Part shown: piece by piece, positions 6,069 to 62,127 of the stretch | Layout of the letters: every line of letters starts with the position of its first letter | Position numbering within the stretch: position 1 is the first letter of the stretch | From: an uncultured Gammaproteobacteria bacterium | Lineage (GTDB): Bacteria; Patescibacteriota; Microgenomatia; Woykebacterales; RBG-16-39-9b | Direction of reading: 5' to 3' | Length of the DNA: 64,000 bases | Assembly: GCA_964360785.1 (NCBI GenBank) | Contig: CAYHXX010000001.1 | Span: forward strand, 73,334 to 137,333 | Made by a program: the position numbers and the translations under genes | The notes under the pieces: model-generated | Database searches by the model: none | What the model was told of the DNA's origin: nothing | What the model saw: only the letters and a program-made list of their open reading frames with translations

Positions 6069-6133
6069 GGTTTCAGTAAAAAGGCAGTCGTGTGACTGTT
6101 CTTTTTTGTACTCTACAAGGAAAGGAGTTTGCC

Positions 6134-6928
6134 ATGCCCGCCCGTGGCAAAAGACCACCAAACCCACCCAGTGCTTGCCGTCACAACAAGGCAGCTGGAC
6201 CGCTCGCCGTTGGTCTCTACCTCGCGATGTTGGTTCTGCTGATGGTTGGTGCCTCGATGTATTTCAGGTACCACACAGAGTGGCAGCGATACCAGCAGCT
6301 GCGGAACTTCTTCGGGGCCCTCGCCCAGAATAACGCGGAGGCCTCCGTCGGAGTTCCAGTTGAAGAAAGCCCTCAGGCTATCTTCAATATAACTCCTGAG
6401 TGTCGTGAGCAGTGGGACAACTACATGGAAGGCCACACTTTCTTGTACGAACCGCAGCGGTTCGGGCATCGGGAGTTTGGACTTCCAGACATCTCGTTCA
6501 CGGAGGACGAGAAGAACTGGTTCGAGGCCTTGGGTTGCAGCGAGTCGAAGTATCACCACTTCGATCCGGATAACAATCCATACGCGGCCACAGATCACGA
6601 AGGACGACCTTTGATCACCTCAGGGGCCGGCTGTGTCAGCATCTACCAAGGGTGCAACCTCAGCATTTGTCCTAAGGAGCTGTGGAGCGAGCTCAAGACC
6701 AACATCTGGTGCGGAGCCAAGCTCTTCCGTCAGCTGTTGGACCAGTTCCCAGGCGATATGGACATGGTCCTCGCCTGTTACAAGGACGCCGTGGTGAAAA
6801 TCGATACGGATGGGGATGGCTATAAGGAAACCTACGTCTATGACCAGGTGACCGGAAATGTCATCCCCGACCCCGAACTCGATTGGCAAGTCCAGACGGT
6901 TAGGGATTTGGTAACAAAAGTTCCGTAG
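6134..6928 (+). CDS. lytic transglycosylase-like protein (SLT domain) with N-terminal TM helix
   Basis: ES...SGAGCVSIYQ and ACYKDA resemble the SLT catalytic Glu-Ser, GLMQ and AYNAG motifs. The likely start is MPARGKR after the RBS AAGGAAAGGAG; the ORF track began it at an upstream ATG at 6092. The segment is about 58% GC. Confidence 0.45.
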   Translation: MPARGKRPPNPPSACRHNKAAGPLAVGLYLAMLVLLMVGASMYFRYHTEWQRYQQLRNFFGALAQNNAEASVGVPVEESPQAIFNITPECREQWDNYMEGHTFLYEPQRFGHREFGLPDISFTEDEKNWFEALGCSESKYHHFDPDNNPYAATDHEGRPLITSGAGCVSIYQGCNLSICPKELWSELKTNIWCGAKLFRQLLDQFPGDMDMVLACYKDAVVKIDTDGDGYKETYVYDQVTGNVIPDPELDWQVQTVRDLVTKVP

Positions 6929-7027: not shown

Positions 7028-7858
7028 CTAAGTTGTAGTCGGCGTCGATTCTGGTGTTGGAGCAGCAGGTGCTAGTTCAGGTGCTGGTTCTGGTGCTGGT
7101 TCTGGTGTTTGAGTCGGTTCTGGTACCGCCGCTACAGGTGCTGGAGCGACTGGTGCCGCAGCAACAGGGGCTGGGGCTACTATGCTACCCGAGAGTTTTC
7201 GGTATGCAAAAGCATAAGCTATCATAATAACAGGGATTGCAACAAACAAACCAACTAGTAGCGCTAGTGCCCCAGCAATTGCAATCAGTCCGGAAACTAC
7301 TCCTAAGAAAACTAGATTCCACCAATTTCCTTTGGTAATTTCATAGCTAGACTTGATTGCATCGATTGGCCCAGCTTTCTTGTCAACCACAACATAGGTT
7401 GTCATACTAAGTTTTACTGCTAAGTAGATTCCCGGAATTATAAAAAATAAAAATCCAGCCAAGACTATTAAACCTTCTAAAATTGAAGCTCCAATATATT
7501 TAAGAGCCAATGGATACTGTTGGTACAAATCTTTAAGGTCACCTTTTTTGCCGTCAACAAAATCAAGAAAAATTTTCATCATGCCAATTGAAATCAGAAG
7601 ACTGATGATTGTAGATATGACATTAAGTAAGGTAACTATAGCTGGATTACCAGCAAAAACCCCTTCTTTGGTTTGTTGATATTGGGTACTTCCAACGTTA
7701 ACGTAAACATTCGTTTCTCCAGTAAGCCAAGACACCAGAAAACTAACTCCAAATTGAAAGATACCTAAAATCACGACAAGAATAATAAAAAAGCCCACAT
7801 TTTTCTTGAATGTTTCCCAACCAAATGCTAAAGCTTCTGAAATAGAAAAAGTATTCAT
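7028..7858 (-). CDS. polytopic membrane protein with Pro/Ala-rich C-terminal tail
   Basis: Several TM helices and a C-terminus APAPVAAAPVAPAPVAAVPEPTQTPEPAPEPAPELAPAAP, encoded by tandem GGTGCTGGTTCT units. Confidence 0.55.
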   Translation of the reverse strand: MNTFSISEALAFGWETFKKNVGFFIILVVILGIFQFGVSFLVSWLTGETNVYVNVGSTQYQQTKEGVFAGNPAIVTLLNVISTIISLLISIGMMKIFLDFVDGKKGDLKDLYQQYPLALKYIGASILEGLIVLAGFLFFIIPGIYLAVKLSMTTYVVVDKKAGPIDAIKSSYEITKGNWWNLVFLGVVSGLIAIAGALALLVGLFVAIPVIMIAYAFAYRKLSGSIVAPAPVAAAPVAPAPVAAVPEPTQTPEPAPEPAPELAPAAPTPESTPTTT

Positions 7859-7951
7859 TTGAATAAATTCCTCCTTTAATATAAGTCTGAGCTGTTTATG
7901 AGTGGCCTGTCAAGAGAAATTCTGCATTATAAGATACTTTTTGTTCATGAT

Positions 7952-9175
7952 TTACTCGTAACGAAGTGCGTCGATTGGGTGTTTTCGTGATGCACCAATT
8001 GCGGGAATAATCCCAAAGATAATACCCACAAAACCAGAAAACCCTAGTGCCAAAAGCAAAACCGTTGGTTCAAGTTTGATTGGAATTGGAGAATTTTCTG
8101 GAATCAAAGTTACAATTGTGGAAAAGATAGCGATGGCAAGTAGACCACCAACCAGAGTTAGTATCATACTTTCAATCAGAAATTGCAGTAGGATGGCTCC
8201 TTGAGTAGCACCGACAGCCTTGCGGATTCCAATTTCCCGTGTTCTTTCGCTGACCGAAACGAGCATAATATTCATAATTCCAATCCCACCGACAAGAAGT
8301 GAAATTGCCGCAAGTGCACCAAGCAGCGCCGTTACTGTATCTAGAATTCCTCCAGTAACTTGAAGCAAATCTTCCTGGCTCAACACTGTAAAGTCTTCTT
8401 CTCCCTTGTGGGTTTTGAGCATAACTTGTTTTACTTCCTTTTTAATTTTATCTACGGAGTCAGCATCCGGAGCTTGCATCGCGATTCGGAAAACTGATTT
8501 TGTGTTGGTTAGCTCCCAGCCAGTGTGTATTGGCATCATGATAACGTCATTAAAGTCCGGGCCACCGAGGTTGGAGGCAGTTTCAACAGTGTTAAAAATA
8601 CCGACAACTGTAAATTCAGTTGAGCGAATTTCCAAAGTTTCTCCCAGCGGGTCGGAACTACCAAAAAGTTTGCTAACTGTTTTTGGACCAATCACCACAT
8701 TTTTTGCCTTTAAATCATCATCAGCGCTTGTTAGTAGTCGACCTCGGTTTAAACTAAGATTGAATATTTCTTCAAATCCACTAGAGCCGGCCAAAATAGA
8801 AGCCGTATCAGAAGTTTTGTTGCCAACACGAGAGGTTCCGGAGAGCAAAAGTGCGACAGAAATCTTTTTGGCATCTTTGACATCGCGTTTAATAGCGAGA
8901 AAATCCTCTTCGGTTAGGGTGCTTTGGCCAAACTGGGCGGTCAAGTTTGTACCACCATCTTCACTAAATTGTCTTCCGGGAGTGACGGCTACCAGATTTG
9001 TCCCGAGATCGGTGATAGAAGTCTCAACCTCGGAACGTACCCCGAATGCTAGAGAAAGCAAACTGGAAATCGTCAGAATGCCAATAACTATTCCCAACAT
9101 TGAAAGAAAGCTACGAGCCTTCTTTGAAAGCAATGATGCAATGGCCATTCTGATGCTGTCGACTAATAAGTTCAT
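7952..9175 (-). CDS. ABC transporter permease, MacB/FtsX-like
   Basis: N-terminal TM helix, a large periplasmic domain and a C-terminal FtsX-type four-helix region. The start overlaps the ATPase gene end by 4 nt. Confidence 0.85.
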   Translation of the reverse strand: MNLLVDSIRMAIASLLSKKARSFLSMLGIVIGILTISSLLSLAFGVRSEVETSITDLGTNLVAVTPGRQFSEDGGTNLTAQFGQSTLTEEDFLAIKRDVKDAKKISVALLLSGTSRVGNKTSDTASILAGSSGFEEIFNLSLNRGRLLTSADDDLKAKNVVIGPKTVSKLFGSSDPLGETLEIRSTEFTVVGIFNTVETASNLGGPDFNDVIMMPIHTGWELTNTKSVFRIAMQAPDADSVDKIKKEVKQVMLKTHKGEEDFTVLSQEDLLQVTGGILDTVTALLGALAAISLLVGGIGIMNIMLVSVSERTREIGIRKAVGATQGAILLQFLIESMILTLVGGLLAIAIFSTIVTLIPENSPIPIKLEPTVLLLALGFSGFVGIIFGIIPAIGASRKHPIDALRYE

Positions 9176-9828
9176 ACTAGCCTCCCATCATTCAACTTAA
9201 TAATCCGATCAGTTTTTTCGGCCAAGGAGTTGTCATGCGTGACGAGTATTACTGTTTTTCCTTTTGAATTTAATTCTTTCAGAAGCTGAAAAATAGCTTC
9301 TCCCGTTTTGCTGTCAAGGTTACCGGTTGGTTCATCAGCCAAAATAATTTCCGGATCGTTAACCAAAGCTCTAGCAATCGAAACCCGTTGTTGTTCCCCA
9401 CCGGAGAGTTGGTTCGGTTTGTTACCTAGTTTTTCTTTAAGCCCAACTTCGGAAAGAAGTTCAACTGCTTTTAATTTCCGGTTAACTTTCTTGTGTGTAT
9501 AAATCAAAGGCAAGATTACGTTGTTTAGACTATTAGTTCCTTGCAAAAGATTGAAGAATTGAAAGACAAAACCAACCTTTTCATTCCGATATCTAGCTAG
9601 TTGCTTGCCGTTTAATTCACCTAAGTTTTGCTCATCGACAACTATCGTTCCACTTGTTGGCTGATCAAGACCGCCAATTAGGTGCATGAGAGTTGATTTC
9701 CCACTTCCCGAGGGGCCAAGAATGGCAACGAACTCACCTTTCTGGATTTTGAGAGAAATATTTTCAAGGGCTGTGAAAGTAGTTTCGCCGGTTTTGTAAG
9801 TTTTGTGTAGGTTGGAAATTGTGATCAT
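9172..9828 (-). CDS. ABC transporter ATP-binding protein (MacB/LolD-type)
   Basis: Walker [10 protein letters not shown], signature [15 protein letters not shown] and Walker [12 protein letters not shown]. Confidence 0.9.
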
Positions 9829-9896
9829 GAAAGGTTATTTTAGGGGTTGGAGACAGTTTATTCAAGGAAAGAAATTAACTTTCTTTTAAAATAGTG

Positions 9897-9924
9897 AAGG
9901 GAAGCGCGCAGCAGATGACGCTTC
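9897..9924 (-). terminator. hairpin GGGAAGCG-N12-CGCTTCCC followed by a U-rich tract on the minus strand
   Basis: Perfect 8-bp inverted repeat immediately downstream of mini-peptide C. Confidence 0.45.
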
Positions 9925-9949
9925 CCTTAGACCAACAGTGTTGTGACCT

Positions 9950-10069
9950 CTATCCCCCGGTGTAGTCGTTCTCCCGTTCGAATCCTTCTTCCAGGCCAGC
10001 GATGATGAGTACAATCGCTGCTGTGGTTACAGCGACCGCCAGTGCGCTGACGACAAGTACCTTTCTCAC
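9950..10069 (-). CDS. single-TM mini-peptide C (39 aa, GTG start)
   Basis: AGGAGG (10076-10081) lies 6 nt before the GTG. Product VRKVLVVSALAVAVTTAAIVLIIAGLEEGFERENDYTGG has a basic N-terminus, one TM helix and an acidic tail. Confidence 0.45.
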   Translation of the reverse strand: MRKVLVVSALAVAVTTAAIVLIIAGLEEGFERENDYTGG

Positions 10070-10098
10070 GCAGCACCTCCTAGGTGATTGCGATTCGT

Positions 10099-10203
10099 TT
10101 ACTCGACGTACCTCTCGGGATGTGGGTCGATTGTGTCTCCCAGACATTCCAGGAAACCCCAGACTGCTAGCAAGATTGCCGCGGCGATGACGACCTTCTT
10201 CAT
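10099..10203 (-). CDS. single-TM mini-peptide B (34 aa)
   Basis: AAGGAGGTACCGACATG: a strong SD, and the ATG overlaps the stop of peptide A (ATGA). Product MKKVVIAAAILLAVWGFLECLGDTIDPHPERYVE. Confidence 0.5.
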   Translation of the reverse strand: MKKVVIAAAILLAVWGFLECLGDTIDPHPERYVE

Positions 10204-10346
10204 GTCGGTACCTCCTTGTAACCGATGTCTCCCGTTTTTCCGTCGGCGCAGAGAATGACTTCCGTACCATCCGGAGGAGCGTTGGCTATTTCGTAGATGA
10301 GCCAACCCAGACAGACGCCTGCTAGAACGAGCAATAGCTTGAGCAA
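10200..10346 (-). CDS. single-TM mini-peptide A (48 aa, TTG start)
   Basis: GGGAGGGG lies 6 nt upstream of the TTG. Product MLKLLLVLAGVCLGWLIYEIANAPPDGTEVILCADGKTGDIGYKEVPT. An upstream in-frame ATG exists, but the SD then falls inside the ORF. Confidence 0.4.
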   Translation of the reverse strand: MLKLLLVLAGVCLGWLIYEIANAPPDGTEVILCADGKTGDIGYKEVPT

Positions 10347-10362
10347 CTGATTCCCCTCCCTA

Positions 10363-10446
10363 CTAGTGCGCTGCAACCGCAACGGCTCCGATGATGACGA
10401 TTCCGTAGTAGATTGCCAAGGCGATCCAACCCTGCCTTGTTATCAT
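10363..10446 (-). CDS. single-TM mini-peptide D (27 aa)
   Basis: GGAGCCGCTCACATG. Product MITRQGWIALAIYYGIVIIGAVAVAAH. Alternatively it is the C-terminus of a 116-aa ORF (10363..10713) that reads through an AT-rich promoter-like stretch and a perfect hairpin. Confidence 0.4.
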   Translation of the reverse strand: MITRQGWIALAIYYGIVIIGAVAVAAH

Positions 10447-10550
10447 GTGAGCGGCTCCTTCCGCTGCTAGGACAATGAAAAGTGCGAGATAAGATAATTG
10501 TACGCTTTTTGTTTTGTTTACAAAAGTATTGCTTGGGGAAAAATGGGTGG

Positions 10551-10597
10551 TCGGGAGACGGCACTGAGTTAACAGCAATCCGTCTCCCGTATGGAAT
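10551..10597. repeat. perfect 9-bp inverted repeat GGGAGACGG-N18-CCGTCTCCC
   Basis: Seen directly. On the minus strand it is followed 10 nt later by UUUUU, so it may act as a terminator or attenuator for the transcript coming from the 10852-10880 promoter. Confidence 0.4.
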
Positions 10598-10851
10598 CCC
10601 GTGAGACTAAGCAGCCGGTACCGCCTCAGGAGCTCTTGCTCATCTGCAAGGGAGTGGTATTTCACTTTTCGACTCCACGCTCGCCGAAACATGAGCGCTT
10701 CATTGTCTCCCACCTATGCTACGCCTCAAGCAGATACCTCACCAAGACCAACGGTAAGGATTCGAACCTTACTAAGCCACTCTCGTGACTTGTCCACAGT
10801 TTGAGCCAGGTTTGCTCGCTCTGTCGTTGTTTCCACGTTTGCAATTATAGT

Positions 10852-10880
10852 TATTTAGTTTGTTTTGTCAAGGAATTTAA
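10852..10880 (-). promoter_or_regulatory. sigma70-like promoter on the minus strand (TTGACA-16-TATAAT)
   Basis: The reverse complement of 10852-10880 reads TTGACAAAACAAACTAAATAACTATAAT, an AT-rich element inside a high-GC block. Confidence 0.45.
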
Positions 10881-10931
10881 TTAGAAAAGTTGTGGCATCT
10901 CTCTCCTTCCTCCTTTGAGATGCCATTCACC

Positions 10932-11744
10932 TTAAAGTCCTGCAGCAGCATCTACAAGACCGTGTTGGTTCGCTCTGCGCCAGAACCCGTGTTCTCCGGT
11001 GCGAATCAGGAGAAGATGAGCGAGCATCTCGTCCGAAGGCACCATGCACCCGGCGTAAGTTCGACGGTAGTAACCGAGTGGGTGCAGGCACATCGCGGCC
11101 AGGAATTGGGTTGCCTCGACTCCCCTCTCCACCTTCCATTCGCGGTAGGCGACGGTGGGTCGGCTAGCGCGAATCAGATAGCGCACCCCGCTCTTACCGA
11201 CCTCGACGAAAGAGTTGGTCAGAGTCAACTGACGTTTCTGCTCTCGACTCAGTTGGGACAGCAACCCCTTGCGAGCTTTCTTCTCCGCCCGACTGCTGGC
11301 AGTCTTCCAGACGACTTTGTCGGTGCGCATCAACAAGTCGTAACTGTGGTCCCAGCGGTGTAGGACGAAGTGGAGATATTCTCCAGTGACAGTGCGGTAG
11401 ACCAGGACCATGACGTCTGGATAGGGCATCCAAACGTTGATCACTGACCAGCGAACATCTTCGTCGATCAATGCCTTCCATTTGGCAAGGAAGCGATCCC
11501 AGTACTCTCCGCTCATTGCGCCAAAGTTGAAGTTCCGCATTTGGAGATCGTCTTCATCACCTTCCGCGACGTTGGGGTGGAAGTTGATGTCGAAGAGGTC
11601 GCGCAGCCTTCCGTCAGCGTTGCCGACGAGTTGGTAACCCTTGATCAACTTCGGTACACCGTAACCGTTTTTGCCAGTCAGTGCCTCTCGTAACTGCTCG
11701 TGTTCTGGCAGGTCGAGCTTGAGCATTCTTTGCTGCGGTGGCAT
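10932..11744 (-). CDS. hypothetical protein (270 aa, Trp-rich, no recognisable family)
   Basis: The ATG is preceded by GGAGGCTAAG, which overlaps the stop of the upstream 97-aa gene. About 58% GC. A hairpin (GGCATCTC..GAGATGCC) lies just downstream. Confidence 0.5.
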   Translation of the reverse strand: MPPQQRMLKLDLPEHEQLREALTGKNGYGVPKLIKGYQLVGNADGRLRDLFDINFHPNVAEGDEDDLQMRNFNFGAMSGEYWDRFLAKWKALIDEDVRWSVINVWMPYPDVMVLVYRTVTGEYLHFVLHRWDHSYDLLMRTDKVVWKTASSRAEKKARKGLLSQLSREQKRQLTLTNSFVEVGKSGVRYLIRASRPTVAYREWKVERGVEATQFLAAMCLHPLGYYRRTYAGCMVPSDEMLAHLLLIRTGEHGFWRRANQHGLVDAAAGL

Positions 11745-11745
11745 C

Positions 11746-12039
11746 TTAGCCTCCAGCAGTTGGCGGTACGATATTCACCGAAGCTCCATTGGCGGGGATG
11801 CGGAAGGTTTGCCGACCGCGCCGCGTTTCGTTCTTGCGAACGATCAGCTCGTCGTTCTTGAGGTCGTAGCCGGTGACGCGGAAATCGTTGCCACCAGCAG
11901 CAACGAAGATTGCTGCTCCGTCACGTAGATTTTCCTTGATGAGAGTTGCGACTTCGACCCGACCCTCTTTCGTGCTGGTGTCGATCTTGCGACGTCGGTC
12001 ACCCTCGCGCACGTTCAGCTGGATGATCTCGATAGACAT
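11746..12039 (-). CDS. hypothetical protein (97 aa)
   Basis: Start MSIEIIQLNV is preceded by GGGAGG 8 nt upstream. An extended -10 (TGTTATAAT) lies further upstream at about 12095-12110. Confidence 0.45.
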   Translation of the reverse strand: MSIEIIQLNVREGDRRRKIDTSTKEGRVEVATLIKENLRDGAAIFVAAGGNDFRVTGYDLKNDELIVRKNETRRGRQTFRIPANGASVNIVPPTAGG

Positions 12040-12255
12040 GGACGAATACCTCCCTGCTTTCACCTGCCTCTCCTTTCAAGGCGGGCTATCTATTATGGGA
12101 CATTATAACACAAAAAGGTTTTAGCTCATCAGAGAAAATTTTGTAGCCGTCGGATCCGTATCGACACGGAAAGGTGTTGGCTTATCGAAGTTTTACCGAA
12201 ACGCAAGGACCTATAGCTATTGACAAGGTACTATTTGGGTGCTAAAATATTTGCA

Positions 12256-13112: not shown

Positions 13113-13676
13113 TCATGGCAAGTAATCGATCGGGTTTACTCTCACTCCATTGTCGATGACTTCGAAGTGCAGGTGTATTCCTGTGCTATAGCCGGTTGAA
13201 CCAGCGATAGCGATCATTTCTCCTTGTTTGACCTGTTCTCCTTGAAAAACCTTTATCTCTGCAAGATGTGCATAAAGAGTTTCTACACCTTCCAGGCTCA
13301 TTATCACCAAGTAGTTTCCGTACGAGCAACACGGGTTTCCTCCAGCGAAGACAACTTCTCCTTCGGTCGCTGCCTTGACTTGTAGTTCTTCAGTACCTAA
13401 CTGTCGAAAACCCAAATCAATATCAATTCCTAACGGGTGTCCTGGGCCATAGTATGCAGCAATTGGCCCCTCAATCGGCCAAGCTAAACTTTGCCTAGAT
13501 GTCTGGATTGTCGGTGTTATATCTTTTCTTTCCGGTTGGTATATTGATACGTCCTTTGACGAATGAACAGGAATAACTCCGAAACCGACGAGCAAAACGA
13601 GGCCGGGAACGAATTCAGTCAGGACGCCAAGAAAAAACTTGGCCGAACGTTCGTTGCGTAGCCGTTTCATGACCAC
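13113..13676 (-). CDS. M23 family metallopeptidase (LytM domain)
   Basis: GIDIDL...GEVVFAG...YGNYLVI...HLAEI...GSTGYSTGIHLHFEV, the full M23 motif set. N-terminal TM anchor. Confidence 0.8.
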   Translation of the reverse strand: MVMKRLRNERSAKFFLGVLTEFVPGLVLLVGFGVIPVHSSKDVSIYQPERKDITPTIQTSRQSLAWPIEGPIAAYYGPGHPLGIDIDLGFRQLGTEELQVKAATEGEVVFAGGNPCCSYGNYLVIMSLEGVETLYAHLAEIKVFQGEQVKQGEMIAIAGSTGYSTGIHLHFEVIDNGVRVNPIDYLP

Positions 13677-61598: not shown

Positions 61599-61837
61599 CT
61601 TGGAGAGGTGTTTTGGAGATAGTCGATAATATTTGAAATATACTGTCCAACAAAAGGCACGGTATTAAGTTGTCCCAGAATAAAAATTAGTAAACCAAAA
61701 ACGATGGTAGCGCCAATAGCACTTCCAACTCCAGCAAGTACCCCAGAAGCAAAGCTGTTAAATAAAACCTTTTTCTGGTTTACCTGTACATTTACATTGT
61801 CTTTTTCAGTCTCAATCTTGATAATGTGTTCAGACAT
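61595..61837 (-). CDS. small membrane protein (80 aa) translationally coupled to thrS
   Basis: Hydrophobic segment GVLAGVGSAIGATIVFGLLIFILG. Its stop overlaps the thrS ATG. Confidence 0.45.
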   Translation of the reverse strand: MSEHIIKIETEKDNVNVQVNQKKVLFNSFASGVLAGVGSAIGATIVFGLLIFILGQLNTVPFVGQYISNIIDYLQNTSPR

Positions 61838-62016
61838 TACTTTTCTCTAGTTGTCAGTCTTAAAAAGGTTGTGATCAGAAGTAAAGTTGCGGAAACAAAT
61901 ATAACTAAAACTAAACCAATATCTGAAAGGATATTCCAGTTTAGCATACGGTCAGTGCCAGCAAATAAAAGTAGCATGATTGCTAGGATATCGATATAAA
62001 TTAAAGTTCTGGACAT
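61837..62016 (-). CDS. small two-TM membrane protein (59 aa), not in the ORF track
   Basis: AAGGAGGCTGCCTAGATG is a strong SD. Product MSRTLIYIDILAIMLLLFAGTDRMLNWNILSDIGLVLVIFVSATLLLITTFLRLTTREK. Its TAA overlaps the next ATG (TAATG). Confidence 0.45.
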   Translation of the reverse strand: MSRTLIYIDILAIMLLLFAGTDRMLNWNILSDIGLVLVIFVSATLLLITTFLRLTTREK

Positions 62017-62050: not shown

Positions 62051-62127
62051 TGGTGGACGGCACAGGGCTCGAACCTGTGACCTCCGCAATGTCAATGCGA
62101 CGCTCTAACCAACTGAGCTAGCCGTCC
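62051..62127 (-). tRNA. tRNA-Val (anticodon GAC), CCA encoded
   Basis: Folded by eye. Acceptor GGACGGC/GCCGUCC. D arm GCUC-AGUUGGUUA-GAGC. Anticodon arm UCGCA-UUGACAU-UGCGA. T arm ACAGG-UUCGAGC-CCUGU, then ACCA. Confidence 0.9.

Follow-up and report, generated by a model that had tools for sequence, protein, structure and literature searches.

A window of 64 kb, which is the whole stretch of DNA that we analysed, from the genome of a groundwater member of the Patescibacteria carries at 9830-10600 on the minus strand a short array of four mini open reading frames (ORFs), named here pep1 to pep4. We read the array as a set of real, co-expressed and outward-facing small membrane proteins that are carried on exchangeable cargo and act as envelope accessory factors. 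To this statement as a whole, in which role and topology are the conditional parts, we give a probability of roughly 55%. A preliminary description of the same DNA had reported four consecutive tiny ORFs of 27, 48, 34 and 39 amino acids (aa), each preceded by a near-consensus Shine-Dalgarno (SD) sequence. All four are present, and the SD sequences can be read directly at a spacing of 6-8 nt from the start codons. They form a compact transcription unit of closely packed single-helix mini-protein genes in a compositionally distinct island, again in line with that description. Both strands of the window were scanned for ORFs of 20-70 aa with an SD, a start codon and a 17-residue Kyte-Doolittle mean of at least 1.9. 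Eight ORFs passed, four of them pep1 to pep4. Dinucleotide shuffles of 9930-10500 (n = 2000) held no qualifying ORF in 1993 cases, one in seven and never two or more. With four in the real sequence and at most one per shuffle, the clustering is far beyond chance.

The coding nature of pep2 to pep4 was assessed against two related contigs. L003, a 3-kb contig of a sister strain from the Hainich groundwater well H51, was reached via close homologues of the adjacent 270-aa protein; it is 90% identical to the window in the ATP-binding cassette (ABC) ATPase and 77% in the 270-aa protein. L053, a Logan contig of 1.2 kb, holds a third version of pep2 and came from a pep2 profile search of 5.8 billion proteins. 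L003 keeps pep2 (47 aa), pep3 (34 aa) and pep4 (50 aa) in this order, together with their TTG, ATG and GTG starts, their SD sites and the ATGA overlap. Both L003 and L053 retain the TTG start of pep2 and its ATGA overlap, and their versions of pep2 are 77-80% identical at the amino-acid level. The pep3 orthologue of L003 is 68% identical, and that of pep4 is conserved in its N-terminus and transmembrane (TM) helix and has a longer tail.

Substitutions fall mostly in third codon positions (first/second/third: 7/3/16 in pep2, 9/2/12 in pep3 and 10/10/18 in pep4; the overall tally given for the comparisons against L003 and L053 is 23/14/42). The ratio of nonsynonymous to synonymous substitution rates (dN/dS) is 0.19 for pep2, 0.46 for pep3 and 0.26 for pep4, beside 0.18 for the adjacent 270-aa gene (versus L003). 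We also ran a permutation test in which the observed substitutions were re-placed at random and the amino-acid changes counted. For pep2 this gave P<=0.001 in all three pairwise comparisons and for pep3 and pep4 P about 0.04 each; for the three genes combined, none of 2000 permutations had as few amino-acid changes. The alternative frames contain stops, and the codon-position pattern fits the mini-ORF frames only. Conserved starts, SD sites and ATGA overlap, taken with the third-position bias, argue that pep2 to pep4 are very probably real protein-coding genes, whose translation we infer. Of the four ORFs, pep1 has the weakest evidence. L053 has a hydrophobic ORF of 26 aa in syntenic position that shares the SD context and the ending (..AAH, TAG) of pep1, and a 26-aa analogue occurs in L001, a further related locus. 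No pep1 counterpart was found in L003, and the middle of pep1 is too diverged from its relatives for dN/dS.

The intergenic gaps are 16 nt (pep1-pep2), -4 nt (pep2-pep3) and 29 nt (pep3-pep4). Two ATGA stop/start junctions had been reported; only one exists, at 10203-10200, where the start of pep3 overlaps the stop of pep2. The genes had also been called translationally coupled, which holds strictly for this pair but not for the others. Upstream of pep1 a promoter-like stretch had been described, and there is indeed a 19-nt block with a good -10 box, identical in L003 upstream of the first cargo gene there despite diverged surrounding intergenic DNA. Its -35 element (TTGTAA, 15-nt spacer) is weak, though, and the block was not called by a consensus promoter scan. 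L001 has an analogue at the same relative place, TTGTTT-17-TAAAAT. On these grounds the block at 10497-10515 would act as the operon promoter. The hairpin terminator described downstream is strong: the hairpin at 9897-9928 has a folding energy of -17.7 kcal/mol (z = -4.6 versus shuffles), and its counterpart in L003 has the stem conserved and the loop alone changed (-16.4 kcal/mol, z = -3.1).

A common architecture of basic N-terminus, hydrophobic helix and acidic or polar tail had been proposed for all four peptides. The helix is common to all and the tail to pep2, pep3 and pep4, but pep1 is tail-less. The four peptides have 17-residue Kyte-Doolittle means of 2.4-2.6 and N-terminal flanks with a charge of +1 to +2. 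The tails of pep2 to pep4 carry a charge of -3 to -4 and contain Tyr and Pro, and the net charge of these three peptides is about -2 to -3. A single-sequence AlphaFold2 model of pep2 has a helix at residues 2-22 (predicted local distance difference test score, pLDDT, about 90) and strands at 28-34 and 41-47 (pLDDT 60-68), so that its tail is predicted to form a beta-hairpin. This tail, DGTEVILCADGKTGDIGY (residues 20-48, window 10200-10290), resembles the FG-GAP repeat unit DGTxxxLxxxGxxGDxGY. The likeness comes from weak phmmer matches to two proteins (P0028, P0030), driven by 5-6 repeated stretches, and the Pfam FG-GAP models gave no match to pep2 itself. Anchored in the membrane, a single FG-GAP-like blade of this kind could form oligomers. 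Peptides of the pep3/pep4 type in the window, L003, L001 and L053 follow a loose pattern of MKK, helix and acidic tail, often with D-P and Y. With a weak alignment of 34% mean column identity, they look like diverged paralogues, and a profile built from them recovered only its own members.

The array occupies a slot with constant borders. The window and the related locus L004 have in common the gene order DegV, DUF192, ..., a 243-aa gene, a pair of 97-aa and 270-aa genes, ABC_tran, MacB/FtsX, DUF975, ..., response regulator and MscS, which L001 shares in part. The 97-aa + 270-aa pair lies at the same chromosomal place in the window, L004, L001 and other Patescibacteria loci. Between the terminator of its operon (10924-10885) and the ABC promoter, the content varies by locus. 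In L004 the slot is empty (97 bp), and in L005 it holds a 90-aa cytoplasmic-looking ORF; both have flanking genes as in the window, and the mini-ORFs are absent from both. L003 holds a multi-pass membrane protein of about 210 aa followed by pep2 to pep4. L053 has a protein of the same membrane-protein family (only 23% identical), a pep1-like ORF, pep2 and two different single-helix mini-ORFs. The window itself carries a structured RNA candidate of about 290 nt and then pep1 to pep4. In L001 the slot holds the same RNA, a 156-aa ORF and a pep1-like ORF, as well as a cation-efflux-like membrane protein of 254 aa (its match to Pfam Cation_efflux, E = 1e-4, falls short of the gathering score) and about six more single-helix mini-ORFs with SDs. 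The search of related genomes for the array thus found pep2 to pep4 in L003, pep2 in L053 and other arrays in L001, but none in L004 or L005.

Start/stop overlaps recur in these arrays, as ATGA and GTGA at 8048-8051 and 8224-8227 in L001 (array at 7655-8561) and at 994-997 in L053 (array at 994-1234); gene callers picked up only some of these mini-ORFs. As the slot content differs between relatives, the mini-ORF operon is probably exchangeable cargo in a fixed slot, a conclusion drawn from comparison of the loci. Its island is richer in GC than its surroundings, as had been noted, but the excess is 12-14 percentage points and not about 20%: the mini-ORFs have 54.5% GC and the whole island (about 9900 to 12110) 54-57%, against 42.8% for the window. 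High GC extends over both the cargo and the anchoring gene pair in the window, L001 and L003, but is confined to the 98-aa gene in L004 and L005. Two independent assemblies of the same strain (L054, L057) have identical DNA from the 270-aa gene through the ABC start, so the island and its junctions are not an assembly artefact.

An origin of the slot as an integron cassette or att site was considered and rejected: no recombinase was found and no attC-like repeats between the ORFs, the sole flanking repeat being 22 nt long and 77% identical. This direct repeat (9856-9877 and 10862-10883) lies in the promoter regions of the ABC operon and of the RNA, respectively, and brackets the RNA and mini-ORF cargo. 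It may be the trace of a cargo insertion or of a promoter duplication.

Table 1. Sequence features of the mini-ORF array and of the neighbouring RNA and gene pair. Coordinates are those of the window.
Feature	Position	Strand	Description
Putative operon promoter	10497-10515	-	block AAAACAAAAAGCGTACAAT; -10 TACAAT at 10502-10497
pep1 SD	10460-10455	-	AAGGAG, spacing 8
pep1	10363-10446	-	ATG start, 27 aa, MITRQGWIALAIYYGIVIIGAVAVAAH; one hydrophobic helix, tail absent
pep2 SD		-	GGGAGGGG, spacing 8
pep2	10200-10346	-	TTG start, 48 aa; TM helix residues 2-22, then 28-residue acidic tail
pep3 SD		-	AAGGAGG, spacing 7
pep3	10099-10203	-	ATG start, 34 aa; MKK, TM helix, acidic tail (..DTIDPHPERYVE)
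pep4 SD		-	AGGAGG, spacing 6
pep4	9950-10069	-	GTG start, 39 aa; MRK, 23-residue TM helix, acidic tail (EEGFERENDYTGG)
Intrinsic terminator of mini-ORF operon	9887-9928	-	stem AAGGGAAGCG / CGCTTCCCTT (9928-9919, 9906-9897), then TTCACTATTTT
Structured RNA candidate	10545-10837	-	about 290 nt, unclassified, adjacent cargo; tRNA-like cloverleaf as 5' domain
RNA promoter	10844-10871	-	TTGACA-16-TATAAT, 12/12 consensus; conserved in L001
RNA acceptor-like stem	10829-10825 / 10753-10749	-	
RNA GNRA hairpin	10791-10774	-	
RNA T-arm	10772-10754	-	GGTTCGAATCC; canonical, abuts acceptor-like stem
RNA 3' hairpin	10589-10552	-	9-10 bp
Terminator of 97-aa + 270-aa operon	10885-10924	-	GGCATCTC..GAGATGCC then ACAACTTTT; read from sequence
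270-aa protein	10932-11744	-	anchors island; C-terminal domain (about residues 150-270) widespread in phage contigs
97-aa protein	11746-12039	-	constant upstream partner of 270-aa gene
Extended -10 of 97-aa gene	12110-12102	-	TGTTATAAT

The peptides belong to no described family; they are present in three strains, with an analogous array in a fourth. Searches with profile hidden Markov models (HMMs), which the preliminary description had proposed for toxin, holin and bacteriocin families, matched nothing: neither the four peptides nor their relatives' versions hit a toxin, holin, spanin, bacteriocin or defence model (Pfam and NCBIfam at E<=10; PHROGs and PADLOC at E<=1). The matches that appeared (SecE, PMP1, TrbK, SE2200) were all at chance level and far below the cut-offs. 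Searches for pep2 were made with its profile in 5.8 billion proteins, by phmmer in 1.84 billion representatives, and by back-translated scans of the JGI metagenomes and IMG/VR. Beyond the window strain, they recovered it only from L003 and L053. A further candidate carrier, L056, was rejected as a false positive, being an ABC-2 permease.

Judged by its features, the array is a set of unannotated small membrane-protein genes on mobile-element-derived cargo and not a new kind of system. The generic features of small membrane proteins (at most 100 aa, bitopic, one TM helix, conservation at the protein level) are all seen here, with translation as the presumed element. MgrB, AcrZ, CydX, KdpF and UgtS resemble the array peptides in their size below 50 aa, single TM helix, annotation misses, purifying selection and, sometimes, location in small operons (PMC12648545). 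They have no sequence relationship to them, and each is one small protein beside its target, whereas the array comprises four unrelated-looking micro-proteins in one operon on exchangeable, phage-associated cargo. Archaeal 'dark-matter islands', which derive from mobile elements, are reported (Makarova et al. 2014, PMC4158269) to be likewise narrowly distributed, fast-turnover clusters of small membrane proteins next to virus-derived genes and of a composition unlike the host genome. In comparison with the islands as described there, the present case is from Patescibacteria, in a very small slot and at a fixed chromosomal position.

In the reading that we favour, the four ORFs would be transcribed as one short operon from the -10 box at 10502-10497 to the terminator at 9897-9928, possibly with added read-through from the strong upstream RNA promoter. 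The products would be four bitopic micro-proteins, each with a basic N-terminus of 1-3 residues and a helix of about 20 residues. Their MKK/MRK ends would lie in the cytoplasm, and the acidic tails of pep2 to pep4 would face outward. By the positive-inside rule, basic flanks of membrane helices stay in the cytoplasm. It is from this rule and from the likeness of the pep2 tail to extracellular FG-GAP repeat units that we infer the N-in/C-out topology. The tight packing and the 4-nt overlaps, recurring in three independent arrays, suggest that the peptides are produced together, and the four would then be made in fixed proportions. The operon would sit as swappable cargo between the phage-type 97-aa + 270-aa pair and the core MacB-type ABC operon in one groundwater Patescibacteria lineage. 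Its products might join into a small hetero-oligomer or work through a larger membrane protein to which they bind. They could, for instance, alter or prevent the contact that a phage or a partner cell makes. A role as strain-specific envelope or surface accessory factors is a tentative proposal which, taken by itself, we rate as less likely than not.

A bolder proposal is a long shot. It would make the peptides a diversifying family of surface-exposed micro-proteins (MKK, TM helix, acidic D-P..Y tail), with pep2 as an FG-GAP-like blade, that form a minimal hetero-oligomeric surface structure by which episymbiotic Patescibacteria recognise or exclude partner cells or phages. A phage-derived cassette would carry the family along with a new tRNA-like RNA, and strains would exchange this cassette at one chromosomal slot. 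Patescibacteria have tiny genomes and rely on cell-surface contact with their hosts. A strain-variable slot of small surface-facing membrane proteins beside phage-type genes is a plausible site for host- or phage-specificity determinants, and its content differs between strains from two wells of one aquifer. The array answers no long-standing question.

Several observations weigh against the favoured reading as a whole. The family is tiny, with pep2 in three strains, so its function is not readable from co-occurrence. Conservation of pep1 is by position only, as a syntenic hydrophobic mini-ORF, and the support for pep3 and pep4 comes from one informative relative at the P values given above. 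In L003 the SD-to-start spacing of pep4 is about 1 nt, owing to a 5-nt deletion. Finally, the protein-level features also suit type I toxins (PMC2887945), including prophage-linked ones (PMC12648545).

On such a reading, which we consider unlikely, at least one peptide would depolarise the membrane and stabilise the phage-derived island, held in check by an RNA antitoxin, possibly the adjacent RNA of about 290 nt. Type I toxins as defined by Fozo et al. (PMC2887945) have fewer than 70 aa, a TM helix and a short polar or aromatic C-terminus; the array peptides have 27-48 aa and one TM helix, and pep2 to pep4 end in polar, Tyr-containing tails (pep1 is tail-less). Like the array, Fst/Ldr, TisB, Hok, TxpA, BsrG and Zor are often unannotated, sometimes tandem and sometimes found on prophages (PMC2887945, PMC12648545). 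The island around the array is accessory and phage-related, and the conserved RNA directly upstream of the array has a strong promoter. The T-loop of this RNA (10756-10767) moreover has a perfect 12-nt complement in the tail codons of pep4 (9976-9987), but the complement was not found in L001 and is probably due to chance.

The organisation of the array differs from that of type I loci, which are separately regulated monocistrons repeated as whole units. It consists of four different ORFs in one polycistron, with strong SDs, a start/stop overlap and acidic tails. No DNA-level repeats between units were found, the promoter and terminator scan gave no convincing antisense promoter or terminator within the ORFs, and no antisense RNA was detected. 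The peptides have no match to known type I toxin families, including Hok, Fst/Ldr, TisB, Ibs, ShoB, TxpA and BsrG (Pfam, NCBIfam, PADLOC). The predicted duplex between the RNA and the mini-ORF mRNA has an energy of -183.5, no better than the -183.2 +/- 7 of shuffles. The RNA is missing from L003 and L053, which retain mini-ORFs of the pep2-4 set, whereas L001, with entirely different mini-ORFs, has it at 88-92% conservation. Since a base-pairing antitoxin should change with its target, these results argue against such a role for this RNA; an antitoxin, if there is one, might be encoded in trans elsewhere. What points instead to a non-toxin role is that the array has four strong, well-spaced SDs in a polycistronic layout, shows no antisense signals and has tails under purifying selection; the peptides are probably not poisons.

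The peptides could also be precursors of secreted peptides. Their hydrophobic segments would then be Sec signal peptides, and cleavage would free the acidic tails (5-28 aa) as products with a pheromone-like or antimicrobial action, perhaps via the MacB-type ABC transporter. This seems improbable to us. The MKK/MRK n-region followed by a hydrophobic h-region is signal-peptide-like, the D-P..Y tail pattern recurs across the paralogues of the window, L003, L001 and L053, and the array is directly upstream of ABC_tran and MacB/FtsX in the window and L003. Phr and SHP pro-peptides, class II or leaderless bacteriocins and phenol-soluble modulins (PSMs) are likewise encoded by short ORFs whose products have a basic N-terminus and then a hydrophobic stretch; some of these ORFs form arrays, and some lie next to ABC exporters. 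In the array, however, the hydrophobic stretches of 15-23 residues are of TM length and uniformly hydrophobic rather than cationic and amphipathic, and by eye they contain no conserved AXA-type cleavage site. The products are net acidic, and pep1 has no tail to release. Neither a double-glycine or other leader motif nor an immunity gene or a dedicated exporter accompanies the array, no bacteriocin HMM matched, and no cognate receptor of the RRNPP or histidine-kinase type is encoded in the island, nor any receptor-like gene beside it. The ABC/MacB genes are core genes with their own promoter-like site (9865-9837), separated from the array by its strong terminator and kept in L004 and L005, which lack mini-ORFs; the array of L001 has no ABC neighbour.

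It is common for single-helix small proteins to bind larger membrane proteins and tune them, and the genes of the two are often neighbours (PMC12648545). By analogy with AcrZ, KdpF or CydX, the peptides might serve the adjacent MacB-type ABC transporter, or a different membrane complex, as small subunits or as regulators. The position of the array next to ABC_tran and MacB fits this, as does its place after the cation-efflux-like protein in L001 and after the multi-pass membrane protein in L003 and L053. The transporter is nevertheless intact and syntenic in L004 and L005 without any mini-ORF, and it is divided from the array by the terminator and the separate promoter just described. The partner would have to vary by locus, as the genomic neighbours do, and we find this reading quite doubtful.

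A holin/antiholin or other phage lysis or superinfection cassette, left as a prophage remnant, would agree with the phage-related context and the small membrane products but is highly improbable. No holin or spanin HMM in Pfam or PHROGs matched, the tails are acidic and not basic, and the island encodes no endolysin, the M23 peptidase at 13113-13676 being about 3 kb off and outside the GC-rich island. Moreover, the 1.5 kb downstream of the 97-aa + 270-aa pair in 44 phage or prophage loci contain no small TM ORF with an SD (0 in 66 kb; elsewhere 0.05 per kb), so the arrays are peculiar to the Patescibacteria slot. The preliminary description had likened the array to type I toxins, to holin/antiholin modules and to leaderless bacteriocin or PSM-like peptides; none of these comparisons found support.

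Public annotation (NCBI and ENA records; P0021, P0023) calls two other ORFs at this locus, one of 116 aa (10363-10713) and one of 106 aa (9950-10270). The sole mini-ORF in any public gene call is pep3 (P0020), on one Logan contig. The 116-aa frame traverses the conserved neighbouring RNA. In L001 it meets a stop after 31 codons and a 2-nt indel shift, and its underlying sequence is absent from L003 and L053; the preliminary description had named conservation of only this read-through frame as refuting the mini-ORFs, and the comparison comes out in favour of the mini-ORFs. In the 106-aa ORF, the pep3 region is read in a frame other than the conserved one, and L003 has nothing that corresponds to this ORF. 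Both ORFs look like gene-caller artefacts, and that they are the real genes, or that the region is untranslated, is barely credible given these breaks, the stops in the other frames and a codon-position pattern that suits only the mini-ORFs, even though gene callers picked both frames. This is a clear mis-annotation, in which two spurious ORFs replace four conserved micro-protein genes, so that the public proteome of the organism is wrong at this locus.

The gene pair that anchors the island is, by its distribution, a phage-type two-gene module. The C-terminal domain of the 270-aa protein has homologues in 30 IMG/VR contigs and, within prophage-like regions, in 14 genomes of many phyla. In the Patescibacteria loci, and in most of the phage loci as well, tblastn places a 97-aa homologue directly upstream of the gene of the 270-aa type, and the module is present in more than 40 phage or prophage contigs (L008, L010-L052) of many phyla. 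Its alignment has invariant residues, including Cys, His, Asp and Glu, in the pattern C.HP(L)GYY..P.D(E)..E. The pair has no match in Pfam, PHROG, PADLOC, NCBIfam or the PDB, nor in GenBank phages. The 270-aa protein (model mean pLDDT 66.6) has no sequence or fold match in the PDB, and its best BFVD match is an unnamed viral protein (E = 3e-4). The terminator of the two-gene operon is conserved in L003 and L001, and the cargo starts right after it, which makes it the upstream edge of the slot.

Compared with its counterpart in L001 (5890-6215), the RNA that precedes the array in the window is 88% identical, or 92% if one variable hairpin is left out; for the flanking genes the figure is 65%. 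ORFs across it are all broken by a 2-nt indel or a stop. With only two sequences (window and L001), a comparison of folds but not of covariation is possible; in RNAalifold all within-stem changes are compatible with pairing. The hairpin on the far side of the operon (10552-10589), described earlier as part of it, is the 3' end of this separate conserved RNA. Neither Rfam nor ARAGORN matched the RNA, and at E<=1 the region 9800-12250 gave only two chance-level matches. L003, L053, L004, L005 and the phage loci lack the RNA, which appears as an insertion when the window is compared with L003. A 20-mer scan of the JGI metagenomes and a 25-mer scan of IMG/VR found nothing, and a covariance model of the 5' domain recovered only the window and L001 among 589 kb of related loci. 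The cloverleaf-like 5' domain, with its T-arm abutting an acceptor-like stem, recalls YrlA (Y-RNA-like) and the tRNA-like domain of tmRNA, a comparison that sets general features of these families beside a two-sequence fold. The RNA here is much longer than either and has a large 3' domain, and no Ro/TROVE or SmpB gene is nearby. This RNA and the phage gene pair are both conserved and both uncharacterised, and they may be more novel than the mini-ORF finding itself.

Three further observations were made in the window. The SD of pep1 sits in the loop of a 5-bp stem (hairpin 10451-10465, minus strand), which L053 keeps at 739-754 through a compensatory change (AGCGG/CCGCT to AGCGA/TCGCT). The fold is no better than shuffles (z = -0.6), and as a functional element the hairpin is treated as unproven. 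A second GC-rich segment (54.6%) at 6092-6928 on the plus strand holds a 278-aa ORF with no Pfam match and no relative among the fetched loci. At this place, flanked by DUF975 and the response regulator, L004 has a Band_7 gene instead, and the segment may be another variable slot. Lastly, a separate 59-aa ORF at 61837-62016 on the minus strand, with an AGGAGG SD and hydrophobic helices, adjoins tRNA-Val (62051-62127), the only tRNA found in the window, and may be another unannotated small membrane protein.

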